Shown here piece after piece: positions 1-3,806 of a DNA stretch of 3,829 bases. Made by a program: the position numbers and the translations under genes. The stretch comes from Escherichia coli (GTDB taxonomy: Bacteria > Pseudomonadota > Gammaproteobacteria > Enterobacterales > Enterobacteriaceae): NCBI RefSeq assembly GCF_003334785.1, contig NZ_QOWV01000050.1. One strand, written 5' to 3'. A model generated the notes under the pieces. That model saw nothing but the letters and a program-made list of their open reading frames with translations, did not search any database and was not told the DNA's origin. How positions within the stretch are numbered: the first letter of the stretch is position 1; the number at the start of each line of letters is the position of its first letter.

Positions 1-62
1 AGAAAATATCCGGCGGGTTCCGGAGCGCCAGTCTGTAGGTTTATCCATCAATAGAACTCCGT

Positions 63-287
63 CTAATTTAGAAGGAGTTCTAATTTAGTCTGCAAGGAGC
101 AGGTGTTACAGACGGCATTGGCTTTACGCTTACCGTTTATATAAAAGCTGTCCTGCAATTTGCGGGTAACAACTTCTGCCAGGCGATTCCGGTTATCCGC
201 CAGTCCGGCATAACCTCTCTCTGTCAGCCACTCATTCAGTTCATGTTTCAGAGACAGATTGATAATATCATAATCGGACCTTGCCAT
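63..287 (-). CDS. Small hypothetical protein, about 74 aa from the ATG at 287 (the ORF track extends it to 99 aa from a TTG at 362); possible DNA-binding or regulatory protein, function unknown
   Basis: Open frame on the minus strand ending at TAG (65..63). The ATG at 287..285 is preceded by AAGGA with about 7 nt spacing (minus-strand reading GCTAAGGAAACGGGA-ATG). The track's start at 362 is a TTG preceded by a GGGGGA run 3 nt upstream. The product (MARSDYDIINLSLKHELNEWLTERGYAGLADNRNRLAEVVTRKL...) has a helical, charged composition and a single CxxC (CNTC) near the C-terminus. Same strand as all neighbours. Confidence 0.45.
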   Translation of the reverse strand: MARSDYDIINLSLKHELNEWLTERGYAGLADNRNRLAEVVTRKLQDSFYINGKRKANAVCNTCSLQTKLELLLN

Positions 288-382
288 TCCCGTTTCCTTA
301 GCACACATTTTCAGGCACGGGGATAAAGTATAAAGAATGTCGTACTGCTGCTGCCAGAGCAATATTCCCCCTGATGGTTGTA

Positions 383-1042
383 TCAGAGATGGTATGCCGG
401 TACTTTGCGGGTTGTTCCTGTCAGGTTATCGTGCACCTCCACGGTCGTGGTCACCACCGGCATTCCGGCCTTTCTCAGCCTCAGAACATCAGCCGCAATA
501 CGCTGACTACCAAACCAGAACAGGCCGTCCAGTGCAGTCACCAGTAAACCCGCCTCCAGTGCATACTTCAGCCGTTCACGGGGCGCTTTCACTTCCCGGG
601 CAACCTGCTGATATGGCAATGATGTGTTTTCATTCCCAACCACGCGACGAATACGGTGAGACAGATGATACCGGAATGTATCCGGCACACCAGAAAGGCT
701 GGCCTTCAGGCTGTACACGCAACCAAACCGTTTATCGTTAAACACCACATTTTTCTGGCTGATGCCCCATTCTTCACGCAGCGCGGCAATCAGTTGTGGT
801 GTCCGGGTAAGCAGCAAGCGAAAAGGCAGTTCAAAACTGGTGACGTAATCCACATTCAGCAGTGCAATACGCAGCCGTTCTTCTGGCCCGGCCTCTGTCT
901 GCCGGCACTCCTCCAGAACATCCTGCCACTGCTGGCGAAGACGGGGCGATTCGTTCCGTTCTGTAAAACAGTATTTATCCGCCAGATAGTCAATTTGTGT
1001 ACGCATACTGAAGAGCATTCCGTATAAAGATTCAGCTGACAA
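383..1042 (-). CDS. Hypothetical protein, about 211-219 aa, no family recognised; start uncertain (TTG at 1042 in the track, first ATG at 1018)
   Basis: Longest ORF in the window, minus strand, stop TGA at 385..383. The translation has protein-like composition with amphipathic helical stretches (LRIALLNVDYVTSFELPFRLLLTRTPQLIAALREEWG), whereas the overlapping plus-strand ORFs (337..741, 656..1027) are Pro/Ser/Arg-rich antisense-like. No Walker, HUH, PD-(D/E)xK or other clear catalytic motif; only a minimal R-x4-H (RYHLSH) that is not diagnostic by itself. None of the candidate starts (TTG 1042, ATG 1018, ATG 1006) has a convincing Shine-Dalgarno, so the N-terminus is uncertain. Confidence 0.6.
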   Translation of the reverse strand: MSAESLYGMLFSMRTQIDYLADKYCFTERNESPRLRQQWQDVLEECRQTEAGPEERLRIALLNVDYVTSFELPFRLLLTRTPQLIAALREEWGISQKNVVFNDKRFGCVYSLKASLSGVPDTFRYHLSHRIRRVVGNENTSLPYQQVAREVKAPRERLKYALEAGLLVTALDGLFWFGSQRIAADVLRLRKAGMPVVTTTVEVHDNLTGTTRKVPAYHL

Positions 1043-1315: not shown

Positions 1316-1729
1316 TCACTCCTGGTCCCGGAGCAAATCTGGCTGGTATCTGTAAACATACTTCGTACATGCCGCTCTGCAATAAATCCCCGTACCACAG
1401 GTTTCACAGAACTTCTTCCCATGAAAAAGCCTCTCGCACATCACGCAATGCCACTCCAGCACGACAGGTAATGGCGATAAAAACATCGCCATATCATCAA
1501 TGTAAGGATGGGATTTTTCCGGATTCAGCACCACACAGGCCGCCTTCTGTTGCTCGCTCAGGGCATGTAAATCATGCTCAAACCACGCCCCCTGAGCATC
1601 TGTCTGCAAAATCAACCGACCACGACAGGAAAGGCAGAAACAATGCCTGATATTTCTGCTGAGCGCAGAATCGGCACTGATAATGTGCTCACCCGGCGTG
1701 ATCCCCAGCCCCGTTTTTAGACCGTTCAT
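1316..1729 (-). CDS. Cys-rich putative zinc-binding protein, paralog B (137 aa); function unknown
   Basis: Minus-strand ORF whose ATG (1729..1727) overlaps the stop TGA (1728..1726) of the upstream paralog as ATGA, with a GAGGAGG SD-like sequence inside the upstream gene's 3' end. It shares with paralog A an N-terminal CxxC (CLSC) followed about 13-15 residues later by W-F-E-H (nt about 1574..1585), and a C-terminal W-H-C-x2-C-x9-C-x-T-C-x-T-G signature (WHCVMC...CETCGTG). Conservation of these motifs between two adjacent same-strand ORFs is strong internal evidence that both are real. Confidence 0.72.
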   Translation of the reverse strand: MNGLKTGLGITPGEHIISADSALSRNIRHCFCLSCRGRLILQTDAQGAWFEHDLHALSEQQKAACVVLNPEKSHPYIDDMAMFLSPLPVVLEWHCVMCERLFHGKKFCETCGTGIYCRAACTKYVYRYQPDLLRDQE

Positions 1730-2115
1730 CCTGCCACTGCCTCCTCACTGAAACGCCCTGTATGACAGTGTGTGCAGTACCGCTCCCCATAATAATCGTG
1801 CTGGCATTGTCTGCAGTGCCAGTTGGCTTTACGCACCACGGGTAAGGCATCCGGTACCCATTGCTGTAAGCGTTTAATCAACAGTATTTCTCTGCGCTCC
1901 GGTCTGACATAAGGGCACTCATGACCGTGCTCAGCCAGCCCTTCGCCAGTGTGTTCAAACCAGGGACGCTCGGTATCGTATTGCGGGTGGTATCTGAGCG
2001 CACTGCCGCAAAGGTGACAGGTGTATCGATCGTAAGGCGCTGTCTGTGCAGTACGGGCACCAGTCAGGCGTCCGTTGCCATCGAATGCGAGAAAAGATTT
2101 TGCGTACATCGTCAT
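1726..2115 (-). CDS. Cys-rich putative zinc-binding protein, paralog A (129 aa); function unknown
   Basis: Minus-strand ORF with ATG at 2115..2113 (alternative ATG at 2109) and GAGGAA upstream (minus-strand reading GCTGAGGAAT-ATG). It contains CHLC, then W-F-E-H (nt about 1951..1962), then a C-terminal WHCRQC...CTHCHTG zinc-ribbon-like arrangement, with the same order and spacing as paralog B. The spacing does not match P2 Ogr / P4 Delta zinc fingers as I recall them. Confidence 0.72.
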   Translation of the reverse strand: MTMYAKSFLAFDGNGRLTGARTAQTAPYDRYTCHLCGSALRYHPQYDTERPWFEHTGEGLAEHGHECPYVRPERREILLIKRLQQWVPDALPVVRKANWHCRQCQHDYYGERYCTHCHTGRFSEEAVAG

Positions 2116-3321: not shown

Positions 3322-3534
3322 TCAGGTAACATATTTCCAGACTGAAGCGGGAACACGATCGTAAAGTTTGTTCATGGTCAGTTCTGCCAGCCGGTGATCG
3401 ACCGCAGAGTTGAAGGCTTCCATCTCCGCTGGAGTAAGCTTATAACGCGTGTGGGAAATCACTTTTTCCAGTGTCTCCCGGGATGAACAACGACGGAACT
3501 GATACAGCCAGTCTTCTTTGGTCTTAACTTCCAT
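3322..3534 (-). CDS. Small hypothetical protein (70 aa) immediately upstream of the HUH gene; possible regulator, function unknown
   Basis: The ATG at 3534..3532 is preceded by GAGAGGA (minus-strand reading AACGAGAGGATA-ATG); stop at 3324..3322. The track's longer 117-aa version starts at 3675, but that N-terminal extension runs through a palindrome-rich AT-rich region and has no SD, so the shorter form is preferred. Product MEVKTKEDWLYQFRRCSSRETLEKVISHTRYKLTPAEMEAFNSAVDHRLAELTMNKLYDRVPASVWKYVT is charged and helical; it does not resemble AlpA as I recall it. Confidence 0.5.
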   Translation of the reverse strand: MEVKTKEDWLYQFRRCSSRETLEKVISHTRYKLTPAEMEAFNSAVDHRLAELTMNKLYDRVPASVWKYVT

Positions 3535-3601: not shown

Positions 3602-3806
3602 TCATCCCGGAAGTCTTTCCACTTTCCTGTCTCTCCGGTAATAAAACATTTTAAATGCTGAAGGCATAACGCCATAACCAGATATTACAAGTAACGTGGC
3701 GTTACACGTGTTAATGCATTACAGAAGTAACAGAGACAATCAGATAGTAAACGTAACCGGCTCATTTAAACCGTCTGGTCTGTTTCCTCCGGCTCTACAA
3801 AAATAA

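Follow-up and report, generated by a model that had tools for sequence, protein, structure and literature searches.

The open reading frame at 63..362 on the minus strand of the window, the whole 3,829-nucleotide stretch of Escherichia coli DNA analysed here, consists of the 5' two-thirds of a small gene, conserved but unnamed, joined to one end of an IS66-family insertion sequence. The best explanation, and one that we hold with high confidence, is that of an independent small gene, with its start at the ATG at 287, that has been cut by IS66 and is neither a fragment of the adjacent ECs1377-family gene nor its obligate partner. Transposition of an IS66-family element into codon 52 of the small gene has duplicated 8 bp of the target, and the gene continues through the IS terminus for 23 foreign codons, without its conserved C-terminal third. 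The product of the intact form is an acidic protein of 77 aa, mostly helical and cytoplasmic, and the small gene probably shares a transcript with the upstream ECs1377-family gene. These findings are already reflected in the RefSeq annotation of the strain, and are ordinary and of little import beyond correct annotation.

Insertion of an IS66-family element into the small gene

By megablast, the window matches with 100% identity the chromosome of E. coli TW10722, which was isolated from human stool (NZ_CP035841.1, from 1879990 onward), and the matches to all other E. coli genomes begin only at position 134 of the window. Among 5,426 complete RefSeq E. coli genomes, TW10722 is the sole carrier of the junction at 133/134. 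Several other assemblies and one metagenome contig also contain the 74-aa protein (P0062) together with the same IS66 neighbour; the insertion is therefore real, and the IS-bearing allele, being carried by all of these, is at least tolerated. As such, the insertion is an unremarkable event.

The uninterrupted locus reads ...GGAAACGTTTATATAAAAGC... and, in the sequence of strain TW10690 (L002), ...CCCAGGAAACGTTTATATAAAAGCTGTCC...; there the small gene is intact, its 234 nt encoding the 77-aa protein MARSDYD...FYINVSWDALNTAYSEHPEWFSGLVSGDEN (WP_000124185.1), and the octamer CGTTTATA is present in a single copy. At the TW10722 locus (L001), the interruption follows CGTTTATA and runs from GTAAGCGTCAACGG to GGCTTTACGCTTAC, after which comes a second CGTTTATA. 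One copy thus stands on each side of the element, forming an 8-bp target-site duplication at 134..141 of the window and at L001 2090-2097. The left terminus of the element (GTAAGCGTCAACGG...) and the right one (...GGCTTTACGCTTAC) have the form GTAAGCG...CGCTTAC, and the terminal inverted repeats (inverted-repeat pair I2; the window copy, at 112-133, ends in ...CGCTTAC) are imperfect, with 22-nt arms that are 73% complementary and located exactly at the homology breakpoints. The element carries three genes in the order tnpA (HTH_Tnp_1, 144 aa), TnpB_IS66 (116 aa) and a DDE_Tnp_IS66 transposase. Termini of the GTAAGCG type, an 8-bp target duplication and the gene order tnpA/tnpB/tnpC are hallmarks of the IS66 family. 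Given the termini, the duplication, the inverted repeats at the breakpoints and the gene order, positions 1..133 of the window are assigned to the right end of an IS66-family, ISEc47-like element, which spans 2,036 bp here (L001 2098-4133) and is annotated with tnpA, IS66 TnpB and an IS66-like transposase. The start codon of tnpA lies within this end (ATG 48-46, minus strand), and the annotation of positions 1-133 should be changed to that of an IS66 end.

The junction divides the small gene into two parts of different origin. The native part, at 134..287 on the minus strand, comprises codons 1-51 and one further base (MARSDYD...QDSFYIN) and is recovered by megablast, by tblastn (residues 1-51) and by the family profile (62.3 bits). 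Comparison of L002 with L001 shows that the remainder, at 63..133 on the same strand, is an IS-derived tail of 23 foreign residues, GKRKANAVCNTCSLQTKLELLLN, followed by a stop; these IS-encoded residues 52-74 replace the 26 native residues VSWDALNTAYSEHPEWFSGLVSGDEN. The C-terminal 28 residues of the native protein are located on the far side of the IS, approximately 2 kb away and outside the window, where the remnant is annotated by PGAP as a pseudogene (L001 2010-2096) and is matched by the family profile at 35.5 bits. The first-pass annotation had described the reading frame with correct positions and had missed that its C-terminus is IS-encoded, the stretch 63..133 not being native to the gene. 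Judged from what is lost, the truncated allele is most likely a non-functional remnant; it retains the N-terminal 51 residues, equivalent to two of the three main helices of the predicted fold, and could keep partial activity.

Two further observations concern the element itself. The IS66 transposase gene of TW10722 is devoid of its N-terminus, and a copy at the same site in another assembly (L031) keeps the N-terminal domains LZ_Tnp_IS66 and zf-IS66; the deletion within the IS of TW10722 therefore occurred later than the insertion. In addition, a near-perfect hairpin with 15-nt arms (52-66 and 68-82) occupies positions 46-82 of the minus strand in the IS66 end, overlaps the GGAG ahead of the tnpA start and contains the stop codon of the chimeric reading frame (TAG 65-63). 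As the IS genes are oriented in the same way as the island genes, read-through transcription from the island could enter the IS; in the resulting transcripts the hairpin may cover the ribosome-binding site of tnpA.

Start codon of the small gene and its separation from the upstream gene

The frame list of the window gives the small gene as a frame of 99 aa that starts from a TTG (362-360). An ATG is found at 287-285, and the neighbouring gene ends with a TGA at 385-383, leaving 20 nt to the TTG and 95 nt to the ATG; upstream, the frame stays open to 425 and overlaps the last codons of the neighbour. The start positions, the gaps and the open frame agree with the first-pass annotation, in which the ATG was already given Shine-Dalgarno support; the Shine-Dalgarno-like sequence is AAGGAAA at 293..299 (minus strand), with 7 nt between its GGA and the ATG. 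The run of five C residues that had been placed at 366..370 is actually at 367-371. Translation of the chimeric frame between its ATG at 287 and its TAG at 65-63 (63..287, minus strand) yields exactly WP_000124184.1 (74 aa), in agreement with the PGAP annotation of the identical record. The region was aligned with six other E. coli loci, five of which carry the small gene, and the sequence AAGGAAACGGGAATG at the Shine-Dalgarno-like site is invariant in each of these five. A non-coding spacer at 288..382 on the minus strand separates the ECs1377 stop from the start of the small gene; it holds both the TTG at 362 and the C5 run, and a scan of its minus strand for promoters and terminators revealed no promoter-like or terminator-like site.

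The start of the small gene is placed at the ATG at 287, with a ribosome-binding site of its own, because most homologues begin at the same point (the MARSDYD motif is the start of 87 of the 120 listed small-protein homologues), because the Shine-Dalgarno-like site and the ATG are invariant, and because the indels found upstream are not multiples of three. The preference for this ATG in the first-pass annotation was well founded. A start at the TTG at 362 would give a 99-aa protein and has in its favour that it produces the longest frame and that N-terminal extensions are called in five of the 120 listed homologues, those of P0059 and P0242 resembling the extension in the window. However, among the three extended sequences that were compared, that of P0002 has an extension unrelated in sequence to that of the window, and the start position of P0059 is a GTG codon. 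Moreover, the stretch between 287 and 362 contains a 7-nt deletion in one locus (L003) and single-base indels together with strong divergence in another (L004), the remote members of the family begin at the equivalent M-S-K-S-D, and no Shine-Dalgarno-like sequence precedes the TTG, which is only 20 nt past the stop of the neighbour. A TTG start is therefore extremely improbable, and in the annotation of the window the 99-aa call should give way to a chimeric remnant, or pseudogene, of 74 aa that derives from a 77-aa gene.

The same spacer bears on the suggestion, also made in the first-pass annotation, that the two genes are pieces of a single ancestor of about 300 aa that came apart near 360-390 through a frameshift or a homopolymer sequencing error. 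In favour of it are the frame of the small gene, which stays open into the end of the upstream gene, and the presence of the C5 run at 367-371. The homologues tell otherwise. A search with the intact 77-aa protein against 5.8 billion proteins resulted in 132 matches, and a search with the 207-aa product of the upstream gene against the same proteins in 725 matches, of which 120 were listed, typically of 207-215 aa; no fused protein of about 300 aa is present among the 132 small-protein homologues or the 120 listed of the 725 ECs1377 homologues. The longest small-protein homologue has 135 aa, the long ones bearing junk tails, and the longest of the listed ECs1377 homologues has 275 aa, the longer ones being N-terminal over-extensions or having unrelated C-termini; the profile of the small family matches none of these 120 proteins. 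The normal ECs1377 proteins, from E. coli as well as Citrobacter and Kosakonia, terminate at or only a few residues away from ...VPAYHL, and the remote homologues of the small protein are free-standing proteins of 77-81 aa. Both flanking genes remain in frame in all aligned loci despite spacer indels that are not multiples of three. The C5 run is of equal length in four other strains (L002, L003, L005 and L008), which disposes of a homopolymer sequencing error. As no fused form is found, the split-gene reading is regarded as refuted by the homologue comparison and retains almost no probability; the homologues compared consistently show two separate genes instead, the small one with a conserved start of its own.

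A family of small proteins on mobile elements

The small frame is a real gene that belongs to a conserved, unnamed family found on islands and plasmids of Gammaproteobacteria, most members of which have 77-81 aa. Exhaustive phmmer and profile searches identified relatives that match over the full length, with 27-40% identity, in Salmonella, E. albertii, E. coli, Rahnella, Serratia, Vibrio, Providencia, Lelliottia and Enterobacter, and a fold search added Erwinia and Rahnella as well as weaker matches (E of about 0.004-0.006) in Actinobacillus and Kushneria. In an alignment of 45 sequences (A3), residues M1, D5, E16, L17, W20, L21, N32, W54 and L57 are invariant, as are, nearly so, N10, L36, N51, A60, W67, F68 and L71. 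The N-terminal block of these positions (M1, D5, N10, E16, L17, W20, L21, N32) is present in the window allele, residues 1-51 of which are unchanged; the C-terminal block (W54, L57, A60, W67, F68, L71) is absent and replaced by GKRKANAVCNTCSLQTKLELLLN. A first model, for which only a shallow alignment was used, was of poor quality (pLDDT 66), and the AlphaFold model of the intact protein based on A3 (pLDDT 80, pTM 0.68) was used instead. It predicts a strand at 8-10, helices at 14-23 and 30-44, a second strand at 51-53 and helices at 54-63 and 65-68. Measured against this fold, the window allele is without the second strand, the last two helices and six conserved positions. The intact E. coli protein is hydrophilic and acidic, with a pI of 4.6.

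That the frame might merely be open by chance in island DNA had to be considered, since no library holds a named family that matches it, alleles of the small protein with truncations or deletions circulate in large number, and the pairwise dN/dS of the E. coli genes, computed over the first 60 codons ahead of the variable 3' end and from few substitutions, is 0.23-0.52 in most pairs and 0.80 in one, so not far below 1 in some of them. Against this, relatives from Salmonella, Rahnella, Serratia, Vibrio, Providencia and Erwinia that are 27-40% identical to it share its length, its ends and its invariant residues, weaker structure-only matches extend to Actinobacillus, the Shine-Dalgarno-like site and the ATG are conserved, and the fold is predicted with a pLDDT of 80 and matched by AFDB models of the same family at TM 0.85-0.90 (Foldseek). 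A chance frame is thus very improbable, and we retain the reading of an independent gene, on which constraint may be relaxed even in its intact form. The commonest allele in public assemblies (P0071, 944 contigs) encodes only 62 aa, owing to an in-frame deletion of 15 residues, RGYAGLADNRNRLAE, flanked by two LAE repeats; with these residues go most of the loop and the beginning of helix 2. This allele suggests relaxed constraint or a tolerated variant.

The identity of the protein was sought with single sequences and with profiles, and nothing significant was found in Pfam, NCBIfam, PHROGs, PADLOC or PDB; a scan of the whole window against Rfam also gave no match. Below the threshold, seven of the 45 members of the alignment match the Pfam families Ish1 and DUF3606 at E 0.1 or better (best i-E 0.031 for DUF3606 and 0.0029 for Ish1), no member reaching E 0.001 and the E. 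coli protein remaining unmatched in Pfam up to E 10. In our own reading, the core of DUF3606 is resembled by the pattern I/V-N-x(3-6)-E-L-x-x-W-L. The resemblance to DUF3606 and Ish1 is a lead and not membership. Foldseek searches against AFDB50 retrieved uncharacterised small proteins of the same family only, along with marginal matches to bL21 extensions and to proteins annotated as ribbon-helix-helix; we derive no function from them. An internal duplication (INLS..ELNEWL versus INVSW.ALNTAY) was considered and rejected, as the two halves, compared by hhalign, reached a probability of 0.24% (E 0.25). Our best guess would make the intact protein neither an enzyme nor a membrane toxin but a small, soluble accessory protein that serves mobile elements in a binding or regulatory role. 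The family, at present without a family model, could receive one from the A3 alignment, a mildly useful by-product. Separately, the C-terminal motif W...HPEWFxGL gave multi-stretch phmmer matches (E 7.5e-11 to 5.5e-4) between residues ~25-76 of the intact protein and repeats in the long proteins P0243, P0249, P0250, P0258, P0263, P0265 and P0266, the repeat ...W A...G I..HPEWYxGL being seen four times in P0265; these matches may reflect a shared short motif or chance.

The relatives are found in the surroundings of mobile elements. For the TW10722 stretch that matches the window, RefSeq annotates on the minus strand, in this order, hha, a YagK/YfjJ gene (inovirus Gp2-type), two 'putative zinc ribbon' genes, a 56-aa hypothetical gene, the 207-aa gene and the 74-aa gene, directly past which come tnpA, tnpB and a truncated ISEc47-like transposase gene. 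The Vibrio relative adjoins ParA, Hok, HicAB and RadC. Relatives in Salmonella and E. coli are found beside a two-gene pair, one product of which has PAPS_reduct and DUF3440 matches and which we take to be IbrA/IbrB-like; the Salmonella relative is flanked on its other side by a pair with SMODS/DncV-like and ThiF matches, presumably of CBASS type. The Providencia relatives are located on contigs of 7-11 kb, one of them, with genes for Rep3 and TraM, being probably a small plasmid, and those of Rahnella and Serratia occupy apparently chromosomal sites. Two observations concern other genes of the window. The zinc ribbon genes (1316-1729 and 1726-2109, minus strand) are tandem paralogues with DUF7828 and Zn_ribbon_11 matches that encode 137 and 127 aa, and their 4-nt overlap suggests translational coupling. 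The Hha-family gene (3322-3534, minus strand; NF008191, 104 bits) encodes 70 aa according to both the annotation and the profile, the 117 aa of the frame list resulting from an upstream ATG at 3675.

The ECs1377-family neighbour and comparison with known systems

The upstream gene, at 383..1006 on the minus strand, is intact and encodes an ECs1377-family protein of 207 aa that bears the NCBI name 'DNA-binding protein'. It matches the NCBIfam model NF052300 with 327.7 bits (cut-off 190) over profile positions 1-190 of 190, and phrog_24243 at E 1.1e-56. A weak HTH_39 (winged-helix) match at residues 160-219, together with precomputed HTH_39 matches for several homologues, makes the protein look like a winged-helix DNA-binding protein, and the dN/dS of its gene is 0.11-0.31. 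Its start is the ATG at 1006, as called by PGAP, and not the TTG at 1042 that would give the approximately 219 aa of the first-pass annotation: the homologues of Citrobacter and Kosakonia begin with MSGRIDYQ or MTGRIDYQ, aligned with MRTQIDY of E. coli, and the NCBIfam profile match begins at residue 28 of the 219-aa translation. The annotated length of the neighbour should accordingly be 207 aa. The name ECs1377 occurs once in a comparative-hybridisation paper (PMC1890555). The ECs1377 homologues of Citrobacter and Kosakonia (L009-L014) are located 0.6-1 kb upstream of type VI secretion clusters (VipA/TssB, VipB, VasE, DotU), and one E. coli ECs1377 match is found beside tssF; the family may thus include regulators linked to T6SS loci.

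The first-pass annotation had also proposed that the two genes are an effector and its small antitoxin- or immunity-like partner. In its strongest form, that of an obligate pair in which an ECs1377 effector or toxin is matched with a small antitoxin, immunity or regulatory partner, this proposal can draw on several features: the genes share a strand, and the 95 nt that separate them contain no terminator-like site, which makes their co-transcription plausible; they are adjacent in most E. coli loci; the small protein is acidic; and it has weak Foldseek matches (E 0.09-0.23) to proteins whose annotation is ribbon-helix-helix antitoxin. Nevertheless, neither protein has a match in PADLOC or to any toxin, antitoxin or defence model of Pfam and NCBIfam, the large protein having only the weak HTH_39 match and the uncharacterised ECs1377 model and looking like a DNA-binding protein. 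Each gene is also widely found without the other. E. coli strains KE51 and MS20655 carry ECs1377 without the small gene, and searching the ECs1377 loci of Citrobacter and Kosakonia in six frames with the small-family profile yielded nothing; conversely, the remote members of the small family have no ECs1377 neighbour, and strain ESY003 keeps an intact small gene beside a decayed ECs1377 gene. Across lineages the two families are therefore not co-inherited. (A 205-aa protein upstream of the Salmonella family member, considered as a possible ECs1377 relative, shows no similarity, with E 1.8.) Finally, here and in several other assemblies the small gene is disrupted and ECs1377 is intact, which is unexpected for the neutraliser of a toxin. 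Because each gene occurs without the other and a disrupted small gene stands beside an intact ECs1377 gene, an obligate pair of the toxin-antitoxin type is unlikely, and we give the proposal little credence.

A looser association is somewhat easier to entertain, since records that cover at least 80% of both genes make up about three quarters of the matching E. coli records (1,813 of 2,400), leaving room for a facultative partnership. The family of 77-81-aa proteins would then be an undescribed small modulator on mobile elements, for example one that tunes an ECs1377-like DNA binder or interferes with a host or defence function. This idea is tentative and rather doubtful; if true, the position of the E. 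coli gene beside ECs1377 would reflect a real facultative partnership; the window itself, however, carries a truncated copy. The reading that we prefer remains that of an independent small gene interrupted by IS66.

Compared with known systems, the locus resembles type II toxin-antitoxin pairs in having two close same-strand genes on a mobile island, one of which encodes a small acidic protein. It differs from them in that neither product is homologous to any toxin or antitoxin family, the small gene is downstream, 95 nt away and non-overlapping, the families are not inherited as a pair outside E. coli, the larger product has the look of a DNA-binding winged-helix protein and disruption of the small gene is tolerated. 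The sub-threshold matches of family members give the small protein a likeness to DUF3606 and Ish1, which are short motifs of the helix-extended-helix type. With the intact WP_000124185.1 (77 aa), the product of the window frame shares residues 1-51 identically, whereas its residues 52-74 are IS-encoded and the motif W-D-x-L-N...H-P-E-W-F-S-x-L is missing. The copy of the element in TW10722 differs from the ISEc47-like element in comprising only 2,036 bp, with a truncated transposase gene; in its GTAAGCG ends, 22-nt terminal inverted repeats, 8-bp duplication and gene order it is like other insertions of IS66-family (ISEc47-like) elements into host genes, as it is in the way the host reading frame runs into the IS end until it meets a chance stop.
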